IMG/VR virus record: IMGVR_UViG_3300012983_000033
Location: 64,001-128,000 of that record
Source: a virus
Lineage: Duplodnaviria > Caudoviricetes
Direction: 5' to 3' (one strand)
Length of the DNA stretch: 64,000 nucleotides
Every line of letters begins with the position of its first letter. Within the stretch, counting starts at the first letter, position 1. This document shows, piece after piece, positions 18,114-51,150 of this stretch. A program made the position numbers and the translations under genes. Under the pieces are notes generated by a model. That model worked only from the letters and a program-made list of their open reading frames with translations. It ran no database searches and had not been told where the DNA came from.

Positions 18114-19679
18114 TTATTTTGCAATTTTGAAATTATATGATGAAGTTAAAACAACATTATTAGCAATTTCACCAATGGTCTTATCACGATCGCCGCTATT
18201 ATATGCCTAAACAATGTTTTCTTTTGTTGAATATTTTATATTAATGCGTTTTGGCTCATTTACCTAAATATAATAATATATATTTTCTAAAATTTGTGAA
18301 GCTAAAACGAAGGTTTTTCCTGCAACAAAAAATAAAGAGTTTTTGTCGATATTTTGTAGCTCAGACATGTCATCTACTGCTAAATACATAAGACTACTTG
18401 CAAAAGCACTAAAAGCCTATTCTATTTGTGGAATCATATTTAATAAATTTTTTCTACGAGAAAGAAAGCTGTTCATTTGTGGTGTAGGATTATATTTCGC
18501 ACCAGATACAGCGGTTCCTTTTGATGAAATATAATATGGAACGTTAAAACCTAAACTACCATAAAAATTAGTAAGAATTTCTTTAACCTCTGTATTAGGC
18601 AATGTATTGAGCACTGTTTCTAAAGAGGCATTTGCAAAATAAGAAGAAAAATTTGAGTCAATATCTAATGCTGTATTTTTTACCTAAATACCAAAATTAT
18701 TTAATAATATATCTCTGTGAGGCTTTGCTTTGTCTTCTCCAACATGAAGTCCACCGAGCCAACGAATACTTTTTCCAATCTCTTCTATTCCAAGAAACTG
18801 TGCTAAATAATACATAGCTTTTATTTCTCCTAATAAACCAGTAATATCATGCTGATTATATCCTACAAAAAACGCAGTGGGATCTGCAACCAAAATATGA
18901 CCAATTATCTTTTTTATGTATGGGTCGCCTCCACAAACTTTGATTATTTCTTGGGCAACTCTAGAATTCATTTTTTGTAATTCTTTTTTATCTATATTTC
19001 GTGCCTCTGAAGGAGTTAAAAAATTTGTCTCTTCCTGCCAACTAAAATGAGCGTTTGCGTCCTACCCATTTTCTGAAACAGATAAAGTAAAAGCCTATGG
19101 TTTTATTTTTTGCTCTTTTGAAGCTTTTTTGTTGTAACTTTTTATTGCTTTATTTAAGGCTATTTTTTGTGCCTTAGATAATTCAGAAATTTTAAAAAAA
19201 CTTTTTCCATTAGAACTTTTCTATATTTTTGAAGCAGAGAATCTTATTTGTTTATTTCCTCCATGAAACTAATTAAGAACAATATTCATTACTTTTCCAT
19301 AGTCTACAACATCCATTTCTTTACAAGCATCCAATACTTCATCTTCTAAAAGGGCAGTAAAACTACTTACATCATAGCCTTTCATCTATTCATATCCTAT
19401 AAAGGCTTGTTTTAAGGCAGAGCCGGACAATGGACAAACCGCTTTTTCATATTGTTTTATTTTTTCATTTAATTCTTGTATTGAACCGACTTTTAATCTT
19501 GCTAAAATATTTTTTTCAATATTCTCGGCTCTTTTGATATCTTGTAGTATCTTCTAAATCCCCACTTGTTTTAAATTACTTAGCGTGGTTATCTTCTCTT
19601 GGCTTGAAAAAGATTGGGTAATATCATAATATCCAGTTAAACTCATTAAGTTAGTTGGAGACTATATTATTGCACTCAT
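18114..19679 (-). CDS. 521-aa protein with 11 in-frame TAG codons; possible PD-(D/E)xK-like nuclease fold
   Basis: GGAGGTG RBS, ATG 19679, no TAA/TGA until 18114; joins ORF-track fragments 18684..18971 and 18417..18614; H.DILL...GI(TAG)VKN motif. Confidence 0.8.
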
Positions 19680-19745
19680 TATCCCACCTCCATAAATTTC
19701 TTCTTATAATAAGTAAAAAAAAGAGTGGAAAACTCCACTCTTTCG

Positions 19746-20132
19746 TTATTCAAGTTCAGTTGTCTTTATATAAGATGTTGCAATATTACCACTTTTTATT
19801 TCAACATATCTTTCAGTAGCAATTTCAACTTTTACCTGCCTCATATCACTCTCAAATCGTACTTCTGCGGCGTACCAATAATTATTCTCTTGACATTCTG
19901 TCAAACCTTCCTCCCAATAGATCGCAAATAATCTTTCGCCGCCGTCCGTAGGAATTGATATAATACTTGTCGCGGATCTTGTCCAACGATGATTTTCATC
20001 AAATTCTTCTACGATAATTCTATTATTGCATAAAACTTCCCTCAACATAAATTCAGGAATATACTCATTATTATCATAAAGTCCAAGAAATTCGGTATTA
20101 TAATCTCTCATATTAACCTCTACATCCAACAA
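19746..20132 (-). CDS. Hypothetical protein
   Basis: HRW and W..GLTECQEN motifs. Confidence 0.65.
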   Translation of the reverse strand: MLDVEVNMRDYNTEFLGLYDNNEYIPEFMLREVLCNNRIIVEEFDENHRWTRSATSIISIPTDGGERLFAIYWEEGLTECQENNYWYAAEVRFESDMRQVKVEIATERYVEIKSGNIATSYIKTTELE

Positions 20133-20856
20133 ATTTTATTTCAGTACAGTCGTCATAAATTTCAATAATATCATCATATATAAACCGCACATTTTCATTA
20201 TATAAAGTTAAATTTAAATCGTGATGATAGTGACCAGTAATCCACATTTTAAAGTCTATATTATAAAATAAATCTTCAAGAAGTTCACCTGAAGGAGTGG
20301 CTTCAAAAGTATGGAATACCTGTTTTACTACGGTATTTGGAAGGGAATGAGAGATGATATAGTCGATACTATTGCCGACAGTAGCAAGATTGCGATTTGC
20401 ATTTTCAATATCAGAAGGAAGAATTGTTTCCTGCGGCCACCAGCTCACATTCTCTGTACGCCATTCTTTGTCGTGGCTATCTGCTCCGCCCATACAAAGG
20501 ATTTTTAAGTCATCAAATTTCAAAATTTCACCACGAAGAATATGGTATACAGAATCAGAAATTTGATGTGCTTTTGCACCACAAAATTCTGTGATAGGAT
20601 ATGCATTAAGGCGAAGATGATTTTCGTGATTCCCGTCAATAAAAACTGTTGTCCACGGCGCAACTTCATCAAGCCATTTTAAATACCATTTTTCTTCACC
20701 GTCAGGCTCATTTGACCAAATAAAGCCAAAGTCACCTGCAATAATCAGTATATCGGACTTGTTAAACGCATTTTTAAACTTTCTGCGAAAGTCTACGAGT
20801 TTATCAAAGTCAATAGTACCGTGAGTATCGCCAGTAACTAATATCTTACTCATCAT
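20113..20856 (-). CDS. Calcineurin-like metallophosphoesterase
   Basis: GDTHG, AGDFG, DGNHEN, SHS, GHYH motifs. Confidence 0.9.
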   Translation of the reverse strand: MMSKILVTGDTHGTIDFDKLVDFRRKFKNAFNKSDILIIAGDFGFIWSNEPDGEEKWYLKWLDEVAPWTTVFIDGNHENHLRLNAYPITEFCGAKAHQISDSVYHILRGEILKFDDLKILCMGGADSHDKEWRTENVSWWPQETILPSDIENANRNLATVGNSIDYIISHSLPNTVVKQVFHTFEATPSGELLEDLFYNIDFKMWITGHYHHDLNLTLYNENVRFIYDDIIEIYDDCTEIKFVGCRG

Positions 20857-22015
20857 CTTCCACCTCCATTTCTTTTTTTATTCGTTCTTTTATTCTTAAC
20901 ATAATAGTTTTTTCTGTTAAATTATTCATATAATCATTTATATTATTTTCTCTATGGTCATAAGCCCATATTGAAAAATTAAAACCGTCTTTTGTTAAGC
21001 CTGCTGAATTAAGAGCATATACATAATTTTTTCTTGGCATCCAGCAAAGATGACGTACTTCACAGAATTGCTCCCAAAAGTGGTCTTTGATATCTTCGTA
21101 TGCCGCGATGATAAGTTCCATTTTTGCTCTATGCATTGGTGCATAAGCAAGGAAGTCATCGACTTTATCCTCACGAATAAGACGGACAGCTGTTCTCAAA
21201 CCAAGTTTACCATTATTTGTAGCGTGCGCGGCGATGAGATATTCTGGTGATTTGATTTTAATGCGGTTATGATTCGCATCGACAACAACCATACCCTCTT
21301 CGTCTTTTGTCATTTGTTCTGCGACATCAATACAATCTTCAAGAGAAGATAAATAAAATCTCTTTGGTTGCTCAACTCCAAATTCCCTCCATACAGGATC
21401 GAACTCATAATACTCTCCATAGAGAATATTATCTCTTTGACCAAGATAATAGAGAGTTGTGTGGTCATAATGGATTGTTACTTGGCTTTCTGGTGAAACC
21501 AATTCAAACATATAGGTGTAATGTTCGTCAAGTTCACGACAGAAAGAAAGCCAATTACAACCAAGAGCACGCTCAACTAAATTACCAAAAGTCAATCCTT
21601 CTATTGAGTTTGACACAGGCGCCTCGAAAGCGTCAATAGAGTTATTAGTTGATAAATGCCAACCTTCGTAGTTGTGCCAGAACTTGATAAGCGAACCGTC
21701 AATTTTTTCATTAACAAATGCACTACACCAATCAATTTCTGCGGCGTTTGGATCTCCATAGTTAAAGAACTTATCGAAAGGATAACAAACAATACTCCAC
21801 TGACCGCTTAATCCTTTTTGCACAATTATGCCACGACACGCCTGACATAAAGGTAAAGACATATCAGATTCAAGCTGATTATACTTGAAAAGGTAATAGT
21901 TACCTTTCTGACGAACTTCAATATTATAAGGCGGTTCCTGTATTAACTTAACCCATTCGTCATTAGGATGCTCATTGGCAAAGTCAATAAAAGCATCAAT
22001 TATTCTTTTCTTCAT
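20846..22015 (-). CDS. RNA ligase (T4 Rnl1-like)
   Basis: CRG, PFDKFFN, EKIDGSL, FELVSP, EGMVV, RIKIKS..Y motifs. Confidence 0.88.
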   Translation of the reverse strand: MKKRIIDAFIDFANEHPNDEWVKLIQEPPYNIEVRQKGNYYLFKYNQLESDMSLPLCQACRGIIVQKGLSGQWSIVCYPFDKFFNYGDPNAAEIDWCSAFVNEKIDGSLIKFWHNYEGWHLSTNNSIDAFEAPVSNSIEGLTFGNLVERALGCNWLSFCRELDEHYTYMFELVSPESQVTIHYDHTTLYYLGQRDNILYGEYYEFDPVWREFGVEQPKRFYLSSLEDCIDVAEQMTKDEEGMVVVDANHNRIKIKSPEYLIAAHATNNGKLGLRTAVRLIREDKVDDFLAYAPMHRAKMELIIAAYEDIKDHFWEQFCEVRHLCWMPRKNYVYALNSAGLTKDGFNFSIWAYDHRENNINDYMNNLTEKTIMLRIKERIKKEMEVEDDE

Positions 22016-22073
22016 AGTTTATTCTCCTTTCTCAATTTCTTTTATTATATCAAAATTTTAAGATAAAATCAAA

Positions 22074-23004
22074 TTAATGCGCCGCCATATCGCATTTATG
22101 AATAATATCAAGTTCCGCGCCCAGTCCTGTTTTCTTATAAAACTTCTCAAGATTTTCGGGTGAACGGAAGAAATGCTCCATATGGAACTGAATAAGATTT
22201 GCAACGATAAGACGCTTATAATTTCTTACTTCATTAAAGTAAATTTCAGGATGTGTCATAAGATAGATATAAGCAGAATAATTCTGATGACCATAGTAGT
22301 GGGCTTCTTTTGTGGGTTCGCCTTTTGAGTTTGTGAATACTTTTGTAAAAGGCTTTCCAATATCGTGATAGCGAATTGCTTCAGTAAGTAATTCAATATC
22401 AACATCATGTCCACAACTATAATTTACTCCAAGATGAAGCAAAGCCATATCTATATGATCGCTCACTGTTTCAGTTGAATGATTATGATTATCATTTTTT
22501 ATTTTATCACAAAGTTCAATATATTTTTCAGTTTTTTCTTCAAGACAAGTATTATCCCAAAGAATAAGGATATTATCCCAACCTTCGTATTCAAAAGGAC
22601 ACTGGAAACTACGAAGTTGTTTTTCAATTACTTCATTAGGGACTTTACGCTCTCTATTTTTCATTCTTTCTTTTATAACTTGCGGCGGTGTGATAATTAC
22701 TATGCATTCTTTTTCGCAGTTAATATGCTGAATCTGTTTTAAGAAGCCTTCACGACGACGAGCTGATAAGTTGGTTGCATCGAACACAACCCATTCACCA
22801 TCTAATAAGCCTTTTTTTATGCGGCGGTGTGCTTCCTGAAAAACTTTCTGCGGGTCTTTCTGCTCATTTTCATCGCCCCAAAGTTCACCACGAATAGCAT
22901 CAGTAGACACAATAATAGCACCCATTTGTGCTAAATCTTTTGCTAAAGTTGATTTACCACAACCAGCGCTAAGATACACCAACCATCATAGTTAGTGTGC
23001 TCAT
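22074..23004 (-). CDS. Polynucleotide kinase (AAA_33) fused to HD domain; 5' end carries a 7-nt frame disruption
   Basis: GCGKST, STD.IR, FDATNL..RR, HDIGK, D..AH motifs; ATG 23004 MSTLTMMVGV is out of frame with AGCGKS. Confidence 0.75.
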
Positions 23005-23005
23005 T

Positions 23006-23950
23006 TTACATCACCTCTTCTTTCATAATATACTTACTGCTATCTAACAGCAAGTCTTCAATTTCTAATGTTTGTAACTTTGTATATGGAATTCTGATTA
23101 ATGGTATCTTGTTTTCTCTACACCACTCATTTTTTATGGAATCTCGCCTTTGATTTTCTTTAAGGCTTTCAATACCTCCATTGTCAAACTAACGTGTGGA
23201 CTCAAAATGCTAAATTCCATCAAATTCAATTAAATAATCAATTGTATTGTTCTTTAAAATTGCAAAGTCAAAAGCATAGAATTTACCACTTTCACTTTTT
23301 AAGTTTTCAAAAGTTGCTTGTCTGCAAAAACTGATATTAAATTCGGATAGTAACTTTGCTATGATTGCTTCTCCCTTTGAATTCATACAACCACAAGAAG
23401 CAACCTTACCACGTTTTAAATCAGAAGTAGATACTATATGTTTTCCACCACAATCGCATTCGCAAAACCAATATCGAATTCCCTTAGGACGAAGAAAAGT
23501 CTCTTCTTTAGTAGCCCTTCGTATTACGGTTAATTTAGTAAATTTTTGTCCTATTAAATCTTCATTATGCTCTTCATTCCATTTTTCTATGGTTGCACTT
23601 GCTCTATCTAAATTATAACATCCACAAGATTTAGTATTACCAGACTTCAAACTTTTTGTTGTTACTGAAATAATATTTCCGCAATCGCACTAACAAAGCC
23701 ATCTAATTCCATTCTTATCTTTTTTAGTTAAATCTCTTTTTAATACGACAAGTCTACCAAACCGCATATTCTTTTCTATTCCAGATTTAGAACAAGGGCA
23801 CTATCCGCCGTTTTTCTTTTCTGGAACTATATTTGCAGTTTTATAAGTTCGTTCCAATCCACATTTTTGACATCTTGCCTACCAAGTGCCTTTACCTATA
23901 TAATCTTCAATAAGATAATCTCCATATTGAAGTCCCTTAAAATTTTTCAT
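23006..23950 (-). CDS. Homing-endonuclease-like protein (C.CDCG repeats plus C-terminal Vsr/DUF559-like nuclease), 5 in-frame TAG
   Basis: WLC(TAG)CDCGN, WFCECDCGG, SKGE, FDF, IEFDGI(TAG)H, LIRIPY motifs; ends TAA. Confidence 0.85.
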
Positions 23951-26927: not shown

Positions 26928-27092
26928 TTAATAGGTTCTTTTTCCTTTTACATAAGCACTCTACCCACAATTTGGACATTTGGTTTTTCTTTTTCCAAAC
27001 CAATGAAAGGGCGTATGAGCAACCCATGTAAACCAATTTCGATATACTGCGACCGCGCCGCAATAAGGGCATTTTACTTTTAATCTTTTCAT
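26928..27092 (-). CDS. Small double Zn-ribbon protein (one in-frame TAG)
   Basis: MKRLKVKCPYCG...KCPNCG(TAG)SAYVKGKRTY-TAA. Confidence 0.55.
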
Positions 27093-28816: not shown

Positions 28817-28890
28817 TGGCGGAGATAATAGGATTCGAACCTATACTAACGGAATCAAAATCCGTTGTGCTACCATTACACCATACCTCT
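28817..28890 (-). tRNA. tRNA-Gln(TTG)
   Basis: Cloverleaf, ACGGA-TT TTG AT-TCCGT, encoded CCA. Confidence 0.9.
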
Positions 28891-29029
28891 ATATATGACT
28901 ACTGAATTGGCAGCAGTCTTATATGTATATTTTTCTGCACTCTGTGCGTAAGTTGGAAACGGGCACTATATACAAACCTTTCAGAGTCTCCACATCCACT
29001 GACCAACGAAGCAGTATGTTTCATCGACT

Positions 29030-29104
29030 TGGCATAGGCAAAAGGATTTGAACCTCTATCTTACAGTTTTGGAGACTGTCGTGTTACCGTTACACCATAC
29101 CTAT
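29030..29104 (-). tRNA. tRNA-Trp(CCA)
   Basis: ACAGT-CT CCA AA-ACTGT. Confidence 0.9.
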
Positions 29105-29198
29105 ATATAATAACAAGATGTTTCCTAAATGACTTTTCAATTTTTATAGGCTTTCAGTTCCTTATAGTCGCGACCATCATTGACTACACCTTGTTATA

Positions 29199-29284
29199 TG
29201 GTACAGATAGTGGGACTTGAACCCACACGTCAAAATGACATTAGACCCTCAATCTAACGCGTCTGCCTATTCCGCCATATCTGC
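29199..29284 (-). tRNA. tRNA-Leu(GAG)
   Basis: TTAGA-TT GAG GG-TCTAA, long variable arm. Confidence 0.9.
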
Positions 29285-29432
29285 ATATAAAAGTCCTTCC
29301 ACCTTAAGCCCCAAGTACCACCTAAGGTTTCCAGACAGTTGTGGTTCTTTAAACTTGGAGCATACGGTACAGGGCGTACGCTCAACTACAAACTTGAATC
29401 ACGAAGTTTTCTTACCACTATGAGTAAAAGAC

Positions 29433-29509
29433 TGGTCTGAGTAGAGGGATTTGAACCCCCAGTCCCTTGAACCCAAATCAAGTGCTCTGCCAAATTGAGC
29501 CATACCCAG
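29433..29509 (-). tRNA. tRNA-Pro(TGG)
   Basis: CTTGA-TT TGG GT-TCAAG. Confidence 0.9.
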
Positions 29510-29602
29510 ATATCGAGTTTGCGCCGAACATCCTATTGGAACGCTTTCACCATAGACCTAACTCGCACTCATTCTTCATTATGATAGGGAGGCATAATAT
29601 AT

Positions 29603-29725
29603 AACGAATGCTTGGGGATTCGAACCCCATATCACTAATGCGGGACTTCTATTCAACCTTAATTGTCGGTAGAATTTAAGTTCATTAACCGTAGCGCTGT
29701 CTTACCTTTGTACAGACGACTCATT
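29603..29725 (-). ncRNA. tRNA-like element with ~55-nt expansion in place of anticodon loop
   Basis: D-arm-like GTCT..GGTAAGAC and perfect T-arm TGGGG-TTCGAAT-CCCCA; weak acceptor stem, no CCA. Confidence 0.4.
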
Positions 29726-29744
29726 GACTATACGAAGGGATGCA

Positions 29745-29820
29745 TGGTCACCCTACAGAGAATTGAACTCTGGTTTAGAGGATGAAAACCTCTTGTCCTA
29801 GGCCACTAGACGATAGGGTG
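29745..29820 (-). tRNA. tRNA-Glu(TTC)
   Basis: AGAGG-TT TTC AT-CCTCT. Confidence 0.9.
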
Positions 29821-29823
29821 ATG

Positions 29824-29897
29824 TGGTTGCAGTCGTAGGATTCGAACCTCGTCTCTTGGTTATGAGCCAAGTGAGCTACCTTTGCTCCACCACTGCG
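29824..29897 (-). tRNA. tRNA-Met(CAT), initiator-like C1:A72
   Basis: CTTGG-CT CAT AA-CCAAG. Confidence 0.8.
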
Positions 29898-29984
29898 ATA
29901 TATAGCCTTGAGGTCAGCCAACCACGCATCTTTTCCTTATTTATTAATCGCTTTTCAGAGCATTTGTTCATCTGGTCGCGATTT

Positions 29985-30062
29985 TGGTGCAAGTGGATGG
30001 ACTTGAACCATCGACGACTCGCGTATCAGACGAGCATTCTAAACCAACTGAATTACACTTGC
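29985..30062 (-). tRNA. tRNA-Ile(GAT)
   Basis: CTCGT-CT GAT AC-GCGAG. Confidence 0.9.
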
Positions 30063-30070
30063 ATATAAAA

Positions 30071-30146
30071 TGGTGGGACGCCTGAGACTCGAACTCAGAA
30101 TCTATCGGTTATGAGCCGAGTGCATTAACCATTATGCTAACGTCCC
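30071..30146 (-). tRNA. tRNA(CAT), Ile2 or Met
   Basis: TCGG-CT CAT AA-CCGA. Confidence 0.8.
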
Positions 30147-30218
30147 AAAAAACAAGAGGGAAGGCGCTCGAGACACCCGTGTGCTTGCGCCCCTCTTCAT
30201 TGCGAACATCACACTTTA

Positions 30219-30295
30219 TGGAGCAGTATACGGGACTCGAACCCGTACCCTCTGCTCGGAAGGCAGATATGCTATCCGTTAAACACCAATACTGC
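30219..30295 (-). tRNA. tRNA-Gly(TCC)
   Basis: TCTGC-CT TCC GA-GCAGA. Confidence 0.9.
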
Positions 30296-30335
30296 ATATG
30301 TGGGTTGAGTACTACTAAGCCCCCAACCAAGGCAA

Positions 30336-30412
30336 TGGCGACTCCAGCGGGGATCGAACCCGCGCTCTCAGACGTGACAGGCCTGCGTTTTAGCCTATTA
30401 AACTATGGAGCC
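30336..30412 (-). tRNA. tRNA-Asp(GTC)
   Basis: CAGGC-CT GTC AC-GTCTG. Confidence 0.9.
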
Positions 30413-30415
30413 ATA

Positions 30416-30492
30416 TGGCGCCTCAGGTAGGGCTCGAACCTACGACATCCTGATTAACAGTCAGGCGCAACTACCAACTGTGCTACTGAGGC
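30416..30492 (-). tRNA. tRNA-Asn(GTT)
   Basis: CCTGA-CT GTT AA-TCAGG. Confidence 0.9.
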
Positions 30493-30542
30493 ATATCTCT
30501 CTTTAACTTACAAATATATTATATCTTCTTTTTAAAAGAAAA

Positions 30543-31271
30543 TCAAATTTTTTCCCATTCTTCATCAGTATATGTTTTTATAATATTTTTTGTGCTTGGT
30601 AAATTTTCTGCTTTACACCATTTTCTAACAGCATTATCAGAAACTCCATATTTTTTACCAATATTAACAAAACTTTCAGTTCTAATTAAAGTCTTTAAAA
30701 TCTCTCTATCCGGACGAGCGCATTTTCTCTGTTCTTTTCCAGAACATTTAACACACTTTGTTGCATTTGAAGAAATTTCAACACCACATTCAATACAAAA
30801 ATTCTTTTTTGGTGCTTCATATACAGCATTTTTACTTCCAAAAGTAGGTAATTGTCTATCACAATTTGGACATACCCAACGCAAATTTTCTACCCTATCA
30901 TCTTTATTGTTTCCATTAATGTGATCTAAAGTTAGTGACAAGGGTTGCCCATTCCAAAAAGGTTCTTGTCCACAAATGGCGCAAACATATGGAGTATATT
31001 CTTGTTTAAGATACCAACGACGCAAAACTGCCTGAGATACTGTTGAATTTTCTACAAAAATTGTCTCTGGAGTCCACACTTGATTAGAATTAGTTTTACC
31101 TAATTCTTCCAATGAAATATTTAAAATTTTGCATCTATCTTTTATCGGTTTTGTTGCTGTACTATTTTTTGAATATCCTATTTTTTGAGAAATTTCTGAT
31201 AAAGAATTGCTATTTTTAACTATCGCAATAAATTCTTCATCTGAAAGTAAATCAACCTTTGTCATAATCAT
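30543..31271 (-). CDS. HNH endonuclease within tRNA array
   Basis: CAICG...LDHINGNNKDDRVENLRWVCPNCD, Zn ribbon, C-terminal HTH. Confidence 0.88.
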   Translation of the reverse strand: MIMTKVDLLSDEEFIAIVKNSNSLSEISQKIGYSKNSTATKPIKDRCKILNISLEELGKTNSNQVWTPETIFVENSTVSQAVLRRWYLKQEYTPYVCAICGQEPFWNGQPLSLTLDHINGNNKDDRVENLRWVCPNCDRQLPTFGSKNAVYEAPKKNFCIECGVEISSNATKCVKCSGKEQRKCARPDREILKTLIRTESFVNIGKKYGVSDNAVRKWCKAENLPSTKNIIKTYTDEEWEKI

Positions 31272-31353
31272 TTCCTCCTTTAAGTTCTATTTATAAGTAA
31301 ATAAATCATAAAGGTATTATATATTTTTCGAACCAAAAATATGGTAAATTTTA

Positions 31354-31443
31354 TGGCAGCCCCGTAGGGATTCGAACCCTAACTAACGCCCTCAGCAGGC
31401 CACAGATTTAGAGTCTGCTGTGCTACCATTACACCACGGGGCA
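31354..31443 (-). tRNA. Amber suppressor tRNA(CTA), Gln-like body, long variable arm
   Basis: GCAGA-CT CTA AA-TCTGT; D-arm identical to that of tRNA-Gln; T-arm TAGGG-TTCGAAT-CCCTA; G73-CCA. Confidence 0.9.
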
Positions 31444-31491
31444 GTATTTAATACCCTCAGTCCTAGCCTTTGAACGAGGGGGCAATATAAT

Positions 31492-31683
31492 TTAATTTAT
31501 ATGAAAAGAGAATTCTTGTTGTTTAGACAACATATCATAATTATATGATGAAACAAGCAAAATATTATCAGTATCTGCTCTAACAACCAAGAATTCATCT
31601 TCTATATTACACTCTGTATTCAAATACACAAAGGCGTTTTCATCAAAATTTTGTAATTTTTCTATGAGGTCTTTAACTCTCAT
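31492..31683 (-). CDS. Hypothetical protein
   Basis: MRVKDLIEKLQ.FD motif; GAGGTG RBS. Confidence 0.6.
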   Translation of the reverse strand: MRVKDLIEKLQNFDENAFVYLNTECNIEDEFLVVRADTDNILLVSSYNYDMLSKQQEFSFHIN

Positions 31684-31703
31684 ATACTCACCTCAAATAA
31701 TTA

Positions 31704-31779
31704 TGGTGCGAGTGTTGGGATTTGAACCCAAGCAACCTTGATTAAAAGTCAAGTGCTCTACCAACTGAGCTACACCCGC
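31704..31779 (-). tRNA. tRNA-Lys(TTT)
   Basis: CTTGA-CT TTT AA-TCAAG. Confidence 0.9.
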
Positions 31780-31791
31780 ATATTTGGCGAT

Positions 31792-32259
31792 TTACATCGC
31801 CTTAAGAAGTATTGATATTTCTTCTACAATTTGGACTTCAGGAATAAAACACCACTTAAGAAGTTCCGAAACACTGATTATAAGAAAAGGAATACTGGTT
31901 ATGAATAAAGTTGCTCCAACGATTGCACTTGCATAACCAAAGAATGTCAGATCCCAATCTTCTCCGTTATAATAACTAATATCTTTTGTCCAATAAAGTG
32001 TTTGAGAAACACCCTTTTCTTTTACTTTTTCAAGTTTTTTAAAGTCTTTAAATATGGCGATAGCACCAACTACACAACCGATCATTATAAGACTCCAACA
32101 AACAACACTAATAACTTCTTCAATGATATTAAAAGTTATATATCGTTCACATAATTCCATAACATAAGGAACTACATTTTCCTGTGTCCAGTCAATTGCA
32201 ATACCCATTTTGTCGCAAATTAACTCAAAAACTTCTTTAAACTGCTCACTAAAAGTCAT
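31792..32259 (-). CDS. Membrane protein
   Basis: Start MTFSEQ; GIAIDWT..NV.PY motif, two TMs. Confidence 0.7.
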   Translation of the reverse strand: MTFSEQFKEVFELICDKMGIAIDWTQENVVPYVMELCERYITFNIIEEVISVVCWSLIMIGCVVGAIAIFKDFKKLEKVKEKGVSQTLYWTKDISYYNGEDWDLTFFGYASAIVGATLFITSIPFLIISVSELLKWCFIPEVQIVEEISILLKAM

Positions 32260-32289
32260 ATACACTTTCCTTTCAAAATTATTTATAGT

Positions 32290-32933
32290 TTGCACCTTGA
32301 AAATACATACTAGACGAACCTTCGTTCTACTGTCAACATTCTTCAACCATATTCAGTCACAGAGGAGATGACTGTGAGCTAAAGGGAGCTACCCTTTAAC
32401 TTTTTCACCCCAGAATTGATCGTTGCACCGAAGTGCGCTGGACCTAAATCAATTCATAAAACTCTGACGGGATTGCTTACCCGCACCTTTCACCTACAAT
32501 TCACATAATTTTATAGTCTTTTACTATAACTATTAATTAATTAATCCTAACATTCGTATTGCTACGCCTTCGGCTACTTGGAGTTGCTTGCATATGTTAT
32601 ACACGAATTTCTTCGCTTCACGGCATTACGGATTATTGGTATTTCACAAGGTTTGATACAGTCACCAGCTAAACCCTAACTTGGATTCGGCACTTGCTAT
32701 TAACAAATGCTTCTATTGTTCCGTCCATACGCATACTACCTTTGATTGCAAATGCTGAAGTGCTATACCTTGGTTTGGGAGTTCATCCTCTTCCACTAAA
32801 TTATCACTAATTTAATGACAGTCCAGAATTGTAAAGTATCCTTTATTTCTTCTGCTGACCTTCCGGTATACCTCAGCACAGTCTGCGAAACTGTGTTTGC
32901 ACTGAGTTGTTAGTATATATTTTCAAGGTGCAA
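32290..32933 (-). ncRNA. Large structured RNA, ROOL-like
   Basis: ~645 nt without a credible ORF, closed by a 23-bp terminal helix, many internal hairpins, own promoter at ~33012-33041; family name by recall only. Confidence 0.6.
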
Positions 32934-33044
32934 CTTGCCAGATAACGAACTGGCTCGCCCTTTACATTCTTAGCCAATGGGTTTGAAGTTTTTTCCTTAA
33001 CTTTCTATAAATATTATAGAATATTTTTGATTAAAAATCAAATT

Positions 33045-33182
33045 TTAAGCGATCTGTTCTTCTGATTTTTCAATCTGACGAACCTTACGAAGAAGTTTAG
33101 CGATAAGTCGTCTATTTGTAGACGCGTCGCGTTTTTCGAGCAAATCTGCCCTCATCTTGTAATATGCTGCTGTTCGATTCAT
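33045..33182 (-). CDS. Small basic hypothetical protein
   Basis: GAGGAG RBS, MNRTAAYY. Confidence 0.5.
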   Translation of the reverse strand: MNRTAAYYKMRADLLEKRDASTNRRLIAKLLRKVRQIEKSEEQIA

Positions 33183-33210
33183 TTTTAATCTCCTCTCATA
33201 ATTTTTATAA

Positions 33211-33290
33211 TGGCACGCCCAGAGAGATTCGAACTCCCGACTAACCGTGGTTCGTAGCCACGTGCTCTGTCCAGACTGAGCTATGAGCGT
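33211..33290 (-). tRNA. tRNA-Arg(ACG)
   Basis: CGTGG-CT ACG AA-CCACG. Confidence 0.9.
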
Positions 33291-33297
33291 ATATAAT

Positions 33298-33371
33298 TGG
33301 AGCAAATAACGGGATTCGAACCCGTGCTGTCTGCATGGCAAGCAGAAGTACTACCACTATACTATATCTGC
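33298..33371 (-). tRNA. tRNA-Gly(GCC)
   Basis: TCTGC-TT GCC AT-GCAGA. Confidence 0.9.
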
Positions 33372-33379
33372 ATATAATT

Positions 33380-33451
33380 TTATACTACTGGGAATTTAAC
33401 CACAGCTCTCCTCCTTTAAAGGGAGGCGAATTTTCGCTATTCGATAGTATA
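33380..33451 (-). tRNA. Degenerate tRNA-like cloverleaf, anticodon TTA
   Basis: TATACTA/TAGTATA acceptor stem, GAAT/ATTC D-stem, CCTCC-CT TTA AA-GGAGG; aberrant T-arm, no CCA. Confidence 0.5.
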
Positions 33452-33459
33452 AAAGCATA

Positions 33460-34350
33460 TGGTAAGTAAAAACGAAAACCTGAGAATACAGTTTTCAAAT
33501 TGCTACGCCTTAATGACCTTATGTGTTAGTCACTTTTCCACTTCCTTTTGGGAAGTAGCGCTCATGCCTGCGTTTTTACATCCCCAGCACAAGGGACGAG
33601 GTCCGCTAATCTACCTTTAACGAGTACTTACTCGATTATCACTCCACTATCAACCTTGCGGGCTGTTCGCGGTTGCTACACCACTATAGATTCGTTTCAA
33701 TCAAATACAAGATGCTTGTGACACCTTATATCCCGTATTGCTTACCACTACGGGCTTAAGACACTTTTCGTTACTCGCAATAACAGATTTTTACTTTTAA
33801 CATACCTTCCATTTAATAGTATTGCTCTACCTACTGAGCTACCCGCGTATGTATGGGAGATAGGTGCTTACTATCTCCGCGTGAATAATAATTGGCACGC
33901 GGGGTGGGACTCGAACCCACGCTAAGTTAATTTGACAGAAGACAGACTGTTATCGTAGTTTCCATACCTTTTGAGCACAGAAATGCTACCCGCCTTCAAC
34001 ACTTTCCTTGGCTTCGTACTCGTGTTTCCTAAAACCACCGTAGCAGTAATAGATGGAAGCCGCCCTTGATTGCTAATCTCGAACTTATCTTCCTGCGGTT
34101 TACCATACCTTATTCTATCCTTTTTGCGTTGAAGCCAGTCCCTTGCGAGAACGGTCGTTCTCAGACATTTGTCCATTGATCGACATTTTCACTTCATCAA
34201 GAATAAGTTAAGACATAGGGGATATATCCGTAGTGGTCTTTTCAACCAACTACTGGTCCCGGCGCGCAGTGCTTGGGGTACCACTTTCGTGGCGGAAGTT
34301 TGTCAGTATCTTCCTTTCGTTCCCTTACGGGAAGTTATCAGCCAAGCCTG
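33460..34350 (-). ncRNA. Large structured RNA, GOLLD-like, with central permuted tRNA halves
   Basis: ~890 nt rich in GNRA/GCAA-type hairpins, own promoter at ~34410-34439; tRNA 3' half at 33893-33920 and 5' half at 33822-33848; ends approximate. Confidence 0.6.
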
Positions 34351-35091: not shown

Positions 35092-35176
35092 TGGTGGGCG
35101 AAGTTGGACTCGAACCAACGAAGTCTTGCGACGGCGGGTTTACAGCCCGCAGCAATTGCCACTATGCGATTCGCCC
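35092..35176 (-). tRNA. tRNA-Tyr(GTA)
   Basis: GCGGG-CT GTA AA-CCCGC, long variable arm. Confidence 0.9.
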
Positions 35177-35237
35177 ATATGAAGCCTTAAGGTCAGCCAA
35201 CCGCACATTACTTAACGCATTCCATTTGCTCGCGCTG

Positions 35238-35325
35238 TGGCGGAGGATCAGAGACTCGAACTCTGAAGGCTGTTACACCTAACGGTTTTCAAGACCGGCG
35301 CAGTACCAGTTATGCTTAATCCTCC
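35238..35325 (-). tRNA. tRNA-Ser(TGA)
   Basis: CGGT-CT TGA AA-ACCG, long variable arm, G73. Confidence 0.9.
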
Positions 35326-35330
35326 ATATA

Positions 35331-35406
35331 TGGTGTCTCAGGTCAGGATCGAACTGACGCGACATGGATTTTCAGTCCATTGCTCTACCTACTGAGCTAC
35401 CGAGAC
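35331..35406 (-). tRNA. tRNA-Phe(GAA)
   Basis: ATGGA-CT GAA AA-TCCAT. Confidence 0.9.
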
Positions 35407-35429
35407 ATATCCTCGGTCTGAGGATTAGC

Positions 35430-36551
35430 TCAGACCGCATAATGAATATTTTTAGAACTCTTACGACGGAAGAGAAGAAAATCAAGTTCTTTATTCTCTT
35501 TAAGTGCAGCATATTCTGCTTTTTCCTGTTCAGTGTCATCTTCATAAGAGTTATATGAATCATTCCATTTAAAGTTAACCGATTTTGCAAGAATGATGTT
35601 GCCGCCGCGCTCATAATCATAACGAATATCAAGAGCACTAAACTCAACAGAAAAACGCTTATCTTCAAGATAGAACCAGCGAGTAATCTGTTCATCACTG
35701 AACATATCAAGTGAAACTTCCTGACTTAATTTTGTTCCGTCTTTGAAACAAGCAATAAGATTATAAGTTTCATTATCAATATTTAAGATATTCAAATCAC
35801 CGATAGCATCTTCAAAGGGCGTTCCACACTGTAATTCAAATGAAATCGCACGAAGACAGTCATAGTTAAGAGGAACTTTATTTGCAAAAGCAACTACCTT
35901 TTCAATTTCACAAAAATACTGATCATCAATCTTATCACGAAGATATTCCTCAATTTCTACTTTTGTGGGATAATCAAAACGAAAATGATAATGGAAACGA
36001 CCAGGGCGGTTCACGATATAATCATTCAAGTGATTCAACTTGTTACAAGTAACAATGAATAACTTTTTACCTTGTGAGAGACCATCAAACAAAGTAAGCA
36101 TACTTGCCTGAGGATCGTTCATTGAGTCACCGTCTTTGGCATAAAAAGTCTTATCAAATTCATCAAAAAGAACGACAACTTCCTGCTGAATTGAGGTAAG
36201 GAAATCCGCAATTCCGGGAATAAAAGCATTTACAATAAGTACGGGATAACCCTCATTAGCCATTTTTGCTGAAAGCATTTTGGCAAATAATGACTTACCA
36301 ATACCTTTTTCGCCACTAAGAATAACACCAAGACTTCTTTCAAAACATTTAAAAGCACCAACAACTTTCTCAAGTTTTTCAGGTGCAACACCATACACTT
36401 TTTCAGTAATTTCAATATCATCAAACTTCTGAAGATAGAAGCCAGTCATTTTACTAAAATTAACAGTATAAATCTGTGCGGGCAACTGATCAAAAGTCTT
36501 GACACCATCATCATAGATTTGGTACATATGACCTGTATTAACTATCTGCAT
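35430..36551 (-). CDS. AAA+ ATPase
   Basis: GEKGIGKS Walker A, LFDEFDK Walker B, TCN sensor, RPGRFHY. Confidence 0.88.
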   Translation of the reverse strand: MQIVNTGHMYQIYDDGVKTFDQLPAQIYTVNFSKMTGFYLQKFDDIEITEKVYGVAPEKLEKVVGAFKCFERSLGVILSGEKGIGKSLFAKMLSAKMANEGYPVLIVNAFIPGIADFLTSIQQEVVVLFDEFDKTFYAKDGDSMNDPQASMLTLFDGLSQGKKLFIVTCNKLNHLNDYIVNRPGRFHYHFRFDYPTKVEIEEYLRDKIDDQYFCEIEKVVAFANKVPLNYDCLRAISFELQCGTPFEDAIGDLNILNIDNETYNLIACFKDGTKLSQEVSLDMFSDEQITRWFYLEDKRFSVEFSALDIRYDYERGGNIILAKSVNFKWNDSYNSYEDDTEQEKAEYAALKENKELDFLLFRRKSSKNIHYAV

Positions 36552-36620
36552 TTTATCATTTCCTTTCTTAACTTACTATAATAATTATATACGATTTTTA
36601 TTATAAAATCAAATTTAAAA

Positions 36621-36708
36621 TGGCGGAGCGGGTGGGATTCGAACCCACGCATCCGTAGACCTAACGAGTTAGCAACCCGTCCCCTTATAGCCACTTGGGT
36701 ACCACTCC
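36621..36708 (-). tRNA. tRNA-Ser(GCT)
   Basis: ACGGG-TT GCT AA-CTCGT, long variable arm. Confidence 0.9.
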
Positions 36709-36714
36709 ATATAA

Positions 36715-37050
36715 AGCTTTCGCACTGATTAGTAAAAGTCTCTCCTACTCTACGCCGAAGCACTCTTGAGTTGGTTTGCGTAGCCACTCCTCATCCGACC
36801 TTAACCCGCAAGTTAAGATACTCTCCTTAGAGAGCTTACCTACTAATCAGCACTACTCATCTTCGCGCACCTTGAAGGCAACCACAAAATCTGTGGCGAT
36901 ACCAGCTCGCAATATAGCTGTTGATCGTCTTCAAGACCGCTTACACTTAGTTCCACAAATATTAATCTATATGTCCCTCACATATTGCGTTTACCCCGAT
37001 TTAAGTATCGGTAGAGGGTGTAACTTTTACTGTAGTCAGTAAACCAGTCA
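36715..37050 (-). ncRNA. Candidate structured ncRNA
   Basis: Long helix 36722-36745 with 36829-36853, plus several hairpins; no credible ORF. Confidence 0.4.
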
Positions 37051-37073
37051 TATATATCATTTCAATGACAAAC

Positions 37074-37149
37074 TGGTAGGGTGCGTGGGATTCGAACCCA
37101 CCCTGTACGGATTTTAAGTCCGCTATCTCTGCCTCTGGATTACCACCCC
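37074..37149 (-). tRNA. tRNA-Leu(TAA), short variable loop
   Basis: GCGGA-CT TAA AA-TCCGT. Confidence 0.85.
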
Positions 37150-37168
37150 ATATAATAGAGAAAATATT

Positions 37169-37375
37169 TTAATTGTGCTCTCTATAACACAATTCTGCTT
37201 CAATTGCATGAATTTCTTCTTTTGCTGTCTTAATACAATGTGTTAAGAAAATCTGATATAAAGTAGATTTAGTGACAGCCAATGATTCTTCGTGCTTTTC
37301 AATTTCTTCTAAAAGCATCTCTTTTCTTTTAATAAGAGTTTCTGCTGAACAATGCTGAAATTGATATCCCTTCAT
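37169..37375 (-). CDS. Hypothetical coiled-coil protein
   Basis: ORF with RBS between tRNAs. Confidence 0.55.
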   Translation of the reverse strand: MKGYQFQHCSAETLIKRKEMLLEEIEKHEESLAVTKSTLYQIFLTHCIKTAKEEIHAIEAELCYREHN

Positions 37376-37408
37376 TCAAACACTTCCTTTCATTCCTATA
37401 TTAAAAAA

Positions 37409-37485
37409 TGGTGGCGGAGGTAGGACTTGAACCTACGACCTTCGGGTTATTGAGCCCGACGAGCTACCAACTGCTCTACTCCGCG
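37409..37485 (-). tRNA. Initiator-type tRNA with 8-nt anticodon loop (CTCAATAA)
   Basis: fMet body CGCGGAGTAGAGCAGTTGGTAGCTCG, TCGGG/CCCGA stem, unpaired 1:72. Confidence 0.8.
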
Positions 37486-37619
37486 ATATATACTCCACAA
37501 TGCACTGTGGAGCCTTCCTTATAATAGGTTTTCAAAACTTACTCTATATATCTTTTCAAGAGTAGGACGACAAGTTTTGAACTATTATAGTTTGCCGCCG
37601 TCCGTCCAAAACGGGACAA

Positions 37620-37702
37620 TGGTGTCGCTGGTGGGACTTGAACCCACACGGTTTCCCACTAGTTTCTAAGACTAGCACGTATGCCTGTTCCGTCACAACG
37701 AC
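37620..37702 (-). tRNA. tRNA-Leu(TAG)
   Basis: CTAGT-CT TAG AA-ACTAG. Confidence 0.9.
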
Positions 37703-37816
37703 ATATAAAAGAAAAGTTATTCTCCGTCGTAGCCTCTGTTTATAACGGAATTTTGACGCGCCGCCTACGAGCTTCTATCCTTTCGGTCTGGTATGAACAC
37801 CCAGATAACTTTTCTA

Positions 37817-37891
37817 TGGAGGTGGATGTCGGAACCGACCCGACAACAAAAGGTTACAAATCTTTCGTTTTTCCTGTTAAACTAATCCACC
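37817..37891 (-). tRNA. tRNA-Thr(TGT), atypical T-loop
   Basis: AAAG..TT TGT AA..CTTT; T-loop GTCGGTT. Confidence 0.75.
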
Positions 37892-38063
37892 ATATAAAAG
37901 GGAATTATAATATGATAGAAAGGGGTAACTTTACTTTACTTTCGTTTTCTTTGTATACCGAATCCCAATGACTAAGCCACATACCAGTCTACGGTCTTCT
38001 TTCGTAGCGTCTGTCGGTGGTAGTTTAAGAAAGTCACCAAAAGAAATCCATCCTCTCTCGGTC

Positions 38064-38140
38064 TGGTACCTCGAGTGGGATTTGAACCCACAAAATACGG
38101 TTTTTGAAACCGTCACGTATGCCAATTCCGTCATCAAGGC
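38064..38140 (-). tRNA. tRNA-Leu(CAA), short variable loop
   Basis: ACGGT-TT CAA AA-ACCGT. Confidence 0.85.
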
Positions 38141-48152: not shown

Positions 48153-49496
48153 TTATATTGTTTTCAATAACGCTTCAATATTACCGATTTGCATTTGAAC
48201 TGCGGCGGAGGTAATAGGAAGAGTATTATCTTCTGAAAGCTCGTTTGTTGTATTAACTGCAAGTTTTCCGTCTTTATATATAAGAGTTTCATCTAATTCT
48301 GGTAAAGTATCTTCGTTAATATTAGAGAGATACTTTTTCCATATAATTTTACCCTGTTCGTTTTTATCAGCGATATAGAAGGTTTTTGATAAACCATCGT
48401 CTTCTTCTTCAGGAGTATCAATAATTATTCCATCTATAGAACAAAATTGCTTTAACACATCAATGCAAATTTGTGGTGTCATTACTATATTTGCATTTTC
48501 TAAATCTTCAGTGTATCCACCAAACATTTCCCATAAATCTGCTACACCCCATTCTTCTTCCCAAAGTTGTGTAAAATATTCAAAATCTTTTTCGGTGGCA
48601 ATATTTGTAGTTTTATTTTTATTATCAACTACATACCAAATATTTGGTAATGTATCTATACCATTATAAAAATTTTCATAATTGGCGAAAAAGAGTCCTT
48701 TTCCACTAAAATTTCCTTCGCCCGTCTGTTCCAATATTTCTATAACAAATAAATCCTGAAATACTCCATCCTTTATTTCTATATTTTTTGCACTACCAAC
48801 TCTTACAATATAACGAATACCAAAAAAGTCTCCAATACCAATCAAACCATACATATTTTTTGTTGCATCATATTTAAAATCACGATAATTGATTGGACCA
48901 AATTGAAGTTTATTATCATAAAAAATGGCATCATCTATATTAACACCAACAAGTTTTCCATTTTCATCATATATAAAGAATCCCGTATCTGGACCATTTA
49001 TAACAATATTGTTCCAAGGATCTTCAATACTTTCTTCAATTTTTACAGGTTTTCTAAGAGCTATAATATCACCCACTTTAGGGCTTTTTGGAAGTGCGTC
49101 CACAACCTTAACTGTATTTTTATACAAATAATCAGCTAAAGAAGGATTTAATTCCTCTAGCTCTTTCTAAAGAGCATTAACACTTTTCGCAACCTTTGCA
49201 ATATAAATGCAAGATTTTACGGTAGTTTCAGCTTGGTGTCCAATGATCTAAATCTCAAGTTTTCCTTCTTCAAGAACAATATCTTTTAATGGTACTACAG
49301 CATAACCATCTTCTAATACTTCTAAATCTTCTAAAGTAAAAACTTTTTCATTGGACATTTTAAAATCAGCATCGTAACTTTGACAATCTTTTATTCTTTT
49401 ATCAATTAAAACATGAAGTTGAGTATAATTATGCTCTTTGGCATAACCGACAATCCCAATATTTTTCTTTTTGGGATCAACTTTAATTATTTCCAT
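48153..49496 (-). CDS. Baseplate/tail protein (BppU-like N-terminus), two in-frame TAG
   Basis: GKLEI(TAG)IIG; joins ORF-track fragments 49248..49496 and 48153..49127 in frame. Confidence 0.72.
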
Positions 49497-49509
49497 TTAA
49501 TCAACTCCT

Positions 49510-49815
49510 TTATTCACAAGTATTAAAAGCGTTTATCATATCTGGAGTAACTTCAACACCTTTTTCAATAAGGAATTCTAATAATTCTTTATTAGCTCTA
49601 ATCTTATATTCTGTGCGGCCGCGCCATATATACAATCCCCATATCGCAGTAGCAAGAACTTCTACAGAAGGAATTAAGTATATTAATGGCGAAGTATCTT
49701 TTGTTTCAACAACAATCCAACAAGCAAAACCCGTCACAAAAAGCACGAGAGCTGTAGCAATATAAGCAAGAATTTTTGTCAAAGTAAACCAGTCTTTTTT
49801 CGGTTTTTGTGACAT
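49510..49815 (-). CDS. Two-TM membrane protein (holin-like)
   Basis: Two TMs, Y.W...E motif. Confidence 0.65.
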   Translation of the reverse strand: MSQKPKKDWFTLTKILAYIATALVLFVTGFACWIVVETKDTSPLIYLIPSVEVLATAIWGLYIWRGRTEYKIRANKELLEFLIEKGVEVTPDMINAFNTCE

Positions 49816-49829
49816 AATTATCCCTCCTT

Positions 49830-49955
49830 TTACTGGAACATATTAAGGAAATTTTTTATAAGATCCTCAATAAGGGGAAACCAAATGTCGATTGGAGCCA
49901 CACCAATAAGTGTGTAGTAAATAGCCGCAAATGTTAATGCGAAAGGATTTACCAT
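49830..49955 (-). CDS. 41-aa hydrophobic peptide
   Basis: GAGGTG RBS; first gene of the minus-strand operon. Confidence 0.5.
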   Translation of the reverse strand: MVNPFALTFAAIYYTLIGVAPIDIWFPLIEDLIKNFLNMFQ

Positions 49956-50097
49956 ATTATTCACCTCGATTTAAAAATTTGTATATTATTACTAAAATAA
50001 AGTAAACTTAGTCAGTTTTGAATCCACTAATTTAAAATTTGCATTTTAGTATAAATTTGATTATACTATAATAGAGAGGTAGATAAGGAGTAAATAA

Positions 50098-51150
50098 ATG
50101 GTATATATCGGAATCTCATTATTAATTGGAATTATATCAATAGGAATATCATTCTATATACGATATAAAGTAGAAGAAGATAAATTTATTAAAAAATTAG
50201 AATTAGAATAGACAAGAAAAATATAGAATAAATATAAAGAATTTTAGATGGAATTCGAGAAATATGAAAATTTATATAGAGATGCATTAAATAAAAAATA
50301 GAAAGAAATTGATATTTTAATAGAAACTTATGATAATGAAGAATTAAGATTAAAAAATGAATTTTTATCTAAATCTATTCTCCATAATTAGAAGATAGAT
50401 GAAATAAAAGAAAAATATAATAAAGCAGAATATGAATTAAAAATAATTGAAGAAAGAAAACAACATACACAAGAAGTATTAAATACTTATTATGACAGTG
50501 AGAAATAGAGAATTGAAGATAAAATTCAAAATATTACTGCAAGTTGTATTGAGGAAATGATGCAACAAGTTGGAATAAAATCTGTAGAATGTGAAGAACA
50601 AATTAAGAAATTCCAAGATGTATTATTATCATATCAACAACGACAAGCCGCAGTAAACGAAGCAATTATGCGCGAGCGTCAATTACAAGAACAATCAGAA
50701 TTTTATACAATCAACCTCTCACAATCAGAAATTGATGACTTGCTTATGATTAAAGAATTATCGCCTCGATTTAATAATCGAGAATTATTAAATAAAATTA
50801 TATATGAAAGTTATATAAAACGTCCTCTCCAAGAAATGATAAAAAGAGTATTGAACGGGCGCAGTCCCAGTGGTATATATAAAATTACTCGAAAATCTAC
50901 GGGTGAAATTTATATAGGTCGTGCAGTTGCTGTCGATAAACGCTGGACAGAGCACGTAAAAATGGCTTTCTCTATTGGTTCGATTGCTCATTCAACTCTT
51001 CATACAATTATGGAAAAAGAAGGAGTTTGGAATTTTACTTTTGAATTACTTGAAGAAGTTCCAAAAGACCAATTAAATGAGCGAGAAAAATACTATATTG
51101 ATTTTTATGATAGTAAAAATTTTGGACTCAATCAAAAAAATGGTGGATAA
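50098..51150 (+). CDS. TM-anchored coiled-coil protein with C-terminal GIY-YIG domain, six in-frame TAG
   Basis: AAGGAG RBS, ATG 50098; TAG at 50209, 50224, 50245, 50299, 50389, 50506; SGIYKIT...YIG...RW..H...E.YYI...GLN. Confidence 0.8.

Follow-up and report, generated by a model that had tools for sequence, protein, structure and literature searches.

Is the amber codon TAG read as glutamine (Gln) in the phage from which this 64,000-nt stretch of DNA derives, which of its genes depend on that reading, and what would make it possible? The stretch, called the window below, comes from a complete phage genome: it covers positions 64001-128000 of a 139,671-bp contig whose ends overlap by 67 nt, which IMG/VR classes as having direct terminal repeats and which CheckV rates as 100% complete; the GC content of the phage is 34.6%. 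An earlier note on the window had proposed that a restricted set of its genes only makes sense with TAG as a Gln codon. Our analysis indicates that genetic code 15 (TAG = Gln) is very probably the full and best explanation of these genes, and that Gln is the amino acid placed at TAG appears very likely from the alignments with related phages.

All 12 TAG-bearing open reading frames (ORFs) listed in the earlier note were re-derived with identical boundaries. Each of them starts with ATG behind a Shine-Dalgarno-like sequence (GGAGG, GAGGTG or AAGGAG), contains TAG as its only in-frame stop and ends at TAA or TGA. TAG is found 11 times in 18114-19679, five times in 23006-23950 and six times in 50098-51150, and once or twice in the other listed ORFs. 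In a greedy codon-usage gene call, the coding fraction of the genome was 70.3% under code 11, 82.9% with TAG as a sense codon and 67.4% with TGA as a sense codon, so that coding density is higher under table 15 than under table 11. The signal is genome-wide and extends beyond positions 18114-51150. Outside the window, a 3,573-aa ORF with 23 TAGs (L002:106-10827, minus strand) and a 3,295-aa tape measure ORF with 57 TAGs (L003:1827-11714, minus strand) open only when TAG is sense; a Pfam search of both giant ORFs returned the tape-measure domain alone, the 3,573-aa ORF being without a match. The codon likewise interrupts the genes for TerL, portal, Dit, tape measure, endolysin and a sigma-like regulator, which are otherwise intact. 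As for terminators, every confidently called gene ends at TAA or TGA, and only in about four early genes is a TAG positioned as a stop would be. Annotation under table 11 would break about one quarter of the phage genes, including those for terminase, portal, the 3,295-aa tape measure, the endolysin and all nucleases, so that table 15 is required for annotating the genome.

The amino acid was addressed by aligning the TAG-bearing proteins, with X at each TAG, to the DNA of related phages. These included the standard-code relatives G001 and G002 (64-79 kb) and G003, at approximately 45-70% protein identity, and the recoded relative L010. Counts of glutamine (Q) taken from a large protein database are partly circular, because recoded contigs in that database are already translated with Q at TAG; the proteins of the window itself were returned from it at 100% identity. 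The codon-level comparison on the DNA of relatives is free of this circularity. An empirical substitution table was derived from these alignments (22,013 aligned pairs). Under it, the 76 residues standing opposite 46 TAG sites in three related lineages gave log-likelihoods of -197 for Q, -229 for glutamate (E), -237 for lysine (K) and -238 for serine (S), which puts Q first by a margin of 32 log units. The residues aligned to TAG are thus enriched for Gln. Where a TAG site is conserved, the partner nearly always has Q, as seen in the standard-code relatives G002 and G003, and L010 carries TAG at the same portal and terminase codons. Amongst the motifs that had first suggested Gln, IEFDGI*H and EIW*NL (the asterisk marking TAG) proved to be good Gln sites by comparison with homologues. 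In WLC*CDCG the TAG is in place but the site is not specific for Gln, the sister repeat having E and a standard-code homologue valine (V). Another phage encodes, at L194:8264-8557 (minus strand), a DUF559-like paralogue of the window gene 43385-43780 with TAG at the conserved Q of VDGEQH; the adjoining HNH gene is without TAG.

A single phage tRNA is able to read TAG. This amber suppressor, tRNA(CUA), is 90 nt long (31354-31443, minus strand; detected by ARAGORN, 55 bits against the Rfam tRNA model) and lies within a TAG-free array of 30 tRNA genes (28817-38541, minus strand). Its body is of the Gln type, with a U1.U72 mismatch, G2:C71, G10, U35, G73 and an encoded CCA. Its D-arm does not differ from that of the ordinary phage tRNA-Gln(UUG) (28817-28890, minus strand; A1.C72 mismatch, G73), which is also the closest phage tRNA (71%) once a 15-nt hairpin in the variable region is set aside. 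The identity rules of Escherichia coli glutaminyl-tRNA synthetase (GlnRS) comprise a weak or unpaired 1:72, G73, G2:C71, G10, U35, G3:C70 and G36. Scored by these E. coli rules, which may not be those of the real host, the suppressor has one feature that speaks against a Gln identity, namely C:G at 3:70, where E. coli tRNA-Gln has G:C. The rules also ask for G36, but every amber suppressor, this one included, has A there, and the triplet CUG is present only in the extra hairpin. A domain search of the phage found no RF-1 domain and no tRNA-synt_1c domain or its C-terminal domain, and a phage-borne release factor or GlnRS/GluRS was rejected for that reason. A complete GlnRS is encoded by two of the three metagenome-assembled genomes (MAGs) of Clostridia or Oscillospiraceae that hold endolysin relatives. 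Because the tRNA body is of the Gln type, the phage has no synthetase of its own and GlnRS is present in these MAGs, the simplest inference is that host GlnRS would charge tRNA(CUA) with Gln. A promoter and terminator scan of the tRNA region found no clear unit for the suppressor; the closest upstream sigma-70-like site lies at 31905-31877.

Two other accounts of the in-frame TAGs were weighed against reading as Gln. That they are assembly errors or signs of decaying pseudogenes has a negligible probability, given that essential genes (terminase, portal, tape measure, endolysin) hold approximately 170 in-frame TAGs and no in-frame TAA or TGA, that independent assemblies carry TAG at homologous codons and that a cognate tRNA is encoded. 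The amino acid is less simply settled, and two points count against a strict Gln assignment. It is known by inference from alignments, and at a minority of well-conserved TAG sites the homologues have S, K, E or aspartate (D). Such a minority is what would be expected of a variable polar residue, and partial mischarging may contribute to it. TAG could also be read as Ser, or as a mixture, since the long variable arm and G73 of the suppressor form the classical tRNA-Ser identity set. The length of the tRNA (90 nt, with a variable region of about 20 nt), its G73 and the alignment of S at a few conserved sites, such as portal 456 and tape measure 574, all fit with this possibility, which we nevertheless consider highly improbable. 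The likelihood of S lies 41 log units under that of Q, TAG exchanges with CAA and CAG at invariant Gln positions, and the D-arm of the suppressor is Gln-type and not Ser-type. Moreover, the arm has a stem of only 3 bp and a conserved loop sequence, whereas seryl-tRNA synthetase reads the length of the arm and not its sequence. A type II tRNA-Ser identity was accordingly rejected for the suppressor: G73 and the long variable region are present, but the 3-bp stem, the D-arm of tRNA-Gln(UUG) and the non-Ser TAG sites do not conform to it.

With Gln as the preferred reading, TAG usage can be expressed as the share of TAG amongst all Gln-type codons, TAG/(CAA+CAG+TAG). This share was 22.7% in the virion block, 16% in the lysis block (43797-49964) and 32% in five nuclease genes, compared with 1.6% in the other 114 genes (virion block versus other genes, Fisher p = 8e-31). 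The corresponding share of CAG was 54% in the other genes, 18% in the virion block and 6% in the nuclease genes. Because the CAG share falls as the TAG share rises across gene classes, TAG has largely replaced CAG in the virion, lysis and nuclease sets. TAG is an ordinary Gln codon in the virion block and in the lysis/tail-fibre block, is densest in the nuclease and homing-endonuclease genes, and is avoided by early, tRNA-region, nucleotide-metabolism and replication genes. The claimed limitation of TAG to part of the gene set is therefore real, including the absence of internal TAG from the nicotinamide adenine dinucleotide (NAD)-salvage, RNA ligase, gyrase and helicase ORFs, but a confinement to late genes is not, as the densest users are nucleases within early and replication operons.

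Ten of the 12 ORFs in the earlier list stand as TAG-bearing genes, and the remaining two, both small zinc-ribbon genes, more likely end at their TAG. In 2959-3249 (minus strand) TAG is codon 84 of 96, and the 12 codons past it take in the ribosome-binding site of the next gene; in 26928-27092 (minus strand) it is codon 44 of 54, directly past the second CxxC. Two early-region genes outside that list have a similar arrangement, 552-959 (minus strand), which ends in TAG TGA TGA (a TAG stop followed by back-up stops), and 1813-1998, with TAG at codon 56 of 61. In all four genes a single TAG lies 0-12 codons from the end of the ORF and the extension crosses AT-rich intergenic sequence. Their TAG is probably a surviving terminator.

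The endolysin gene of the lysis block (44780-45922, minus strand; Amidase_2, with Pfam and PHROG matches) has its TAG at codon 105. This position faces Q of Bacillus subtilis XlyA (3hmb) and Q in the Clostridia MAG homologues L187 and L188, and is CAG in the close relative L192; the endolysin was looked for in relatives G001-G003 and not found. On the same minus strand, the block also encodes, at its end, a 201-aa protein with an N-terminal membrane helix (43797-44402, TAG at codon 26), a 117-aa ORF absent from the earlier list (44427-44780, codon 4), a BspA-type leucine-rich-repeat protein (46635-47219, codon 19), a 301-aa protein related to the tail-fibre-like PHROG 13589 (47233-48138, codons 161 and 185) and a 447-aa protein of no known family (48153-49496, codons 83 and 110), for which tblastn against INPHARED phages gave no match. 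Two ORFs on the plus strand also carry TAG, a deoxynucleoside monophosphate kinase-like protein (41476-42000), whose TAG at codon 44 is aligned with E in relative G002, and an 82-aa ORF (43144-43392) with TAG at codon 3 and a start that is coupled through ATGA to the DNA ligase gene. Outside the window, a 465-aa sigma-factor-like gene beside the terminase (L004:12688-14085) has three TAGs, so that a late regulator may also depend on suppression.

The five nuclease genes are 18114-19679, 23006-23950, 50098-51150 and two further GIY-YIG genes beyond the window. The first (18114-19679, minus strand) has the densest TAG usage in the window, with 11 TAGs, and encodes a 521-aa MspI/HinP1I-like (PD-D..QxK) nuclease with full-length homologues. 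Its AlphaFold2 model (predicted local distance difference test score, pLDDT, of 84) gave VIA-align Z scores of 8.4 to MspI (root-mean-square deviation 4.7, 202 aligned) and 7.7 to HinP1I, the next match being at 5.3; a Foldseek match alone was weak (E = 0.13). D323, the nearly invariant Q332 and K334 of the D...QxK motif are kept across 21 homologues. The modeled protein is a predicted restriction-endonuclease-like fold with a D...QxK catalytic motif. TAG332 itself lies in the motif G(I/V)QVKNT; L197 and the standard-code L198 have CAA at this codon, L196 and L199 TAG. At the family's invariant Q171 the converse is seen, with CAA in this phage and TAG in L196 and L197. The family is TAG-rich in four of five phages, three of the four other phages having 10-13 TAGs at mostly different positions.

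The operon of 18114-19679 is otherwise free of TAG. Adjoining the nuclease gene at 19746-22982 (minus strand) are genes for an RNA ligase of the T4 Rnl1 type, a calcineurin-like phosphoesterase and an AAA_33 kinase, all without TAG, which together look like a tRNA-repair set; this neighbourhood recurs around the nuclease homologue in L196. The second nuclease gene (23006-23950, minus strand; PHROG 374/559/9084) encodes an HNH/DUF2726-type homing endonuclease, and its five TAG sites face R, Q, V, Q and Q in a standard-code homologue from L194 (71% identity). The third (50098-51150, plus strand) encodes a protein of 350 aa in which an N-terminal membrane helix and a coiled coil are combined with a GIY-YIG nuclease domain at the C terminus. 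At its six TAG positions, relatives L191-L193 (82% identity) have TAG at two sites and CAA, TGG, GAT and TTA at the others, and two of their own TAGs face CAA in this phage.

How a tRNA with A36 would be accepted as a Gln tRNA brings attention to its variable region. This region has 15 extra nt in the form of a hairpin, GCC[UGCUGAG]GGC, the bracketed loop of which shows the Gln anticodon CUG followed by A. IMG/VR was scanned with a pattern that fixed only the CUA anticodon loop, the long spacing and the T-loop and left the arm unspecified. YUGA was present in the arm of 44 of the 45 unique Gln-like long tRNA(CUA) recovered, compared with 7.0 +/- 2.4 in shuffles and 3 of 54 ordinary Ser, Leu and Tyr tRNAs from the same loci. 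Of 35 distinct arms, 34 share one frame, in which 2-5 covarying pairs close a 7-nt loop N-U-Y-U-G-A-R, and YUG thereby takes exactly the place that an anticodon has in its loop. At 34 of 40 long-arm tRNA(CUA) loci, the gain in ORF coverage was larger with TAG as sense than with TGA as sense, which marks these loci as TAG-recoded themselves.

An opal counterpart was found in a widened scan, which also took in ordinary selenocysteine tRNA (tRNA-Sec), used here as a control class. All seven non-Sec long-arm tRNA(UCA) carry UCCAA, with the anticodon of tryptophan (Trp), and none of the ten tRNA-Sec-like control genes has UCCAA in the arm. As the opal suppressors have a different scaffold and carry the Trp anticodon, the arm loop is tied to the amino acid, which argues for an identity role. 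The hairpin's copy of the Gln anticodon loop (U-CUG-A) would probably make good the loss of Gln identity caused by the change of G36 to A36. We tentatively propose, with slightly less than even confidence, that the variable-region hairpin is a natural pseudo-anticodon that acts as a Gln identity element. The broader proposal, that phage stop-codon suppressors carry a hairpin decoy of the cognate sense anticodon (U-CUG/UUG-A for amber to Gln, U-CCA-A for opal), is put forward with the same reserve, just short of an even judgment. If true, such a hairpin would let the class I GlnRS or tryptophanyl-tRNA synthetase of the host accept a stop-reading tRNA and would be a general rule for phage code switching in a standard-code host. 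It would be a testable answer to a question left open by Borges et al., how the host charges stop-reading tRNAs, and the design may be useful for making suppressor tRNAs.

In canonical binding, as seen in GlnRS-tRNA crystal structures, class I GlnRS faces away from the variable region, and this speaks against an identity role of the hairpin. A hairpin that is a relic of the origin of the suppressor, or that serves a modification or processing enzyme or as an anticodon-nuclease decoy, is a possibility we rate below even. Its geometry would not be obviously compatible with canonical GlnRS binding, normal-length tRNA(CUA) do exist in phages (15 of 100 in the loci examined) and other phage tRNA(CUA) have been reported as substrates of E. 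coli GlnRS (PMC12636597). Against a relic or another partner, the arm stem changes by covariation but the loop U-Y-U-G-A-R is retained, in 36 distinct arms with 30 distinct acceptor stems, and the opal suppressors show the Trp anticodon on a different scaffold.

The arrangement of TAG in the genome raises a related question of function. If the suppressor tRNA must be made first, TAG-bearing genes would be fully translated only later; late appearance of the suppressor would then delay the virion, lysis and nuclease proteins. This timing gate is a hypothesis already published, in the preprint of Borges et al. (10.1101/2021.08.26.457843), and the layout found here is compatible with it; for this phage the gate is unproven and we regard it as evenly balanced. 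Two observations count against it. TAG positions along genes are near-uniform (Kolmogorov-Smirnov p = 0.054), and the base 3' of TAG resembles the base following CAA or CAG; uniform placement and ordinary codon context fit neutral use as well as gating. Decoding could accordingly be as described and the restriction to a gene set have no regulatory role, with CAG drifting to TAG by C-to-T change in genes translated after the tRNA has become abundant. Such drift would also cover genes that are mobile or under weak constraint, for example homing nucleases that pass from one recoded phage to another; it seems plausible, although we place it somewhat under even. In addition to the placement and context of TAG, it agrees with the depletion of CAG as TAG rises and with the MspI/HinP1I-like nuclease family, whose 10-13 TAGs in each of four phages lie at mostly different positions and which includes standard-code as well as recoded members. 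Drift does not readily cover the TAG-dense nuclease genes within TAG-free early operons, which are presumably transcribed early and for which translational delay would be an explanation, nor the bias towards lysis genes that, according to the same preprint, recurs in unrelated recoded phages. A translational delay of dangerous proteins would be most clearly exemplified by the TAG-dense nuclease genes within early operons.

Code-15 phages have been described amongst crAss-like, Lak, Garnet, Topaz and other clades, and Borges et al. report for them TAG-to-Gln recoding in late and lysis genes, a phage tRNA(CUA), standard-code sisters and, within an early gene, a homing endonuclease that is recoded. 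Gln at TAG was proven by proteomics in crAss-like phages by Peters et al. 2022 (PMC9523058). The present phage resembles these known systems in its TAG-containing structural and lysis genes, standard-code replication genes, tRNA(CUA), low GC content, standard-code close relatives and preferentially recoded homing endonuclease in an early gene. Unlike them, it belongs to a 140-kb siphophage-like lineage of Bacillota, with a TerL 44% identical to that of Geobacillus virus E3, and is without a release factor or synthetase module. It adds a Bacillota-phage lineage to the already described code-15 phenomenon. The TAG-dense MspI/HinP1I-like family and the residual early TAG stops are not described in those passages of Borges et al. 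and Peters et al. that a keyword search covered.

A closer likeness is seen to phAss-1 and the proposed Phassvirus group, for which the published description (PMC10607447) gives a genome of about 136-140 kb, approximately 30 tRNAs, TAG in TerL, portal and tape measure, a tRNA-Sup-CTA predicted to carry Gln, no synthetase of its own and Clostridia as suggested host. The two differ in that their TerL proteins are 34% identical and that this phage has one suppressor tRNA where two or three are present there; no unusual tRNA arm is mentioned in the passages of that paper returned by keyword.

The suppressor also invites comparison with E. coli supE (glnV44), a tRNA-Gln with the anticodon CUA that is likewise a Gln-inserting amber suppressor with U35 kept, a weak or absent 1:72 pair and G73. 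supE has a normal 5-nt variable loop, whereas the phage tRNA adds a hairpin with the wild-type anticodon CUG. The only precedent found for a variable arm bearing an anticodon is an engineered one, the variable-arm (V-arm) pseudo-anticodon tRNAs of Mukai 2020 (PMC7590224), in which a V-arm hairpin on a CUA-anticodon tRNA similarly mimics the cognate anticodon arm and was meant to recruit the anticodon-binding domain of the synthetase. That design is synthetic and depends on a His system, on an allo-tRNA chassis and on synthetases that carry an additional binding domain as a fusion; the phage arm is natural, Gln-specific and presumably read by the unmodified host enzyme. No account of a natural counterpart of such an arm was found in a literature search of incomplete coverage.

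A tblastn search with TerL against INPHARED phages found distant relatives only, the nearest named one being Geobacillus virus E3 (44% identity), followed by an Alicyclobacillus phage, Enterococcus phages of 134-138 kb and phAss-1 (34%); megablast of window positions 40000-60000 against the same phages gave no match. Relatives of the endolysin were found in rumen MAGs of Clostridia and Oscillospiraceae. The phage is a tailed phage of Bacillota, and on these grounds its host is most likely a member of the Clostridia, probably from rumen or gut Clostridia/Oscillospiraceae.

The tRNA array has further features of its own. About 850 nt from the suppressor tRNA, it contains a full-length ROOL RNA (32296-32930, minus strand; Rfam RF03087, 318.6 bits, model positions 1-574). 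A scan of the window with Rfam at gathering thresholds gave matches to ROOL and tRNAs only, with nothing at 33460-34350. The tRNA at 37409-37485 (minus strand) has an 8-nt anticodon loop, CUCAAUAA, for which ARAGORN reports the anticodon 'caat'. Its C1.C72 mismatch and the three G:C pairs that form the base of its anticodon stem resemble those of an initiator, and this tRNA may be an initiator or Ile2-type tRNA with one additional loop base. Lastly, a promoter-like sequence, TTGATT-17-TATAAT, is repeated on the minus strand upstream of tRNA groups, at window positions 30546, 33041, 34438, 34785 and 36612, and a similar sequence follows the gene 26928-27092.

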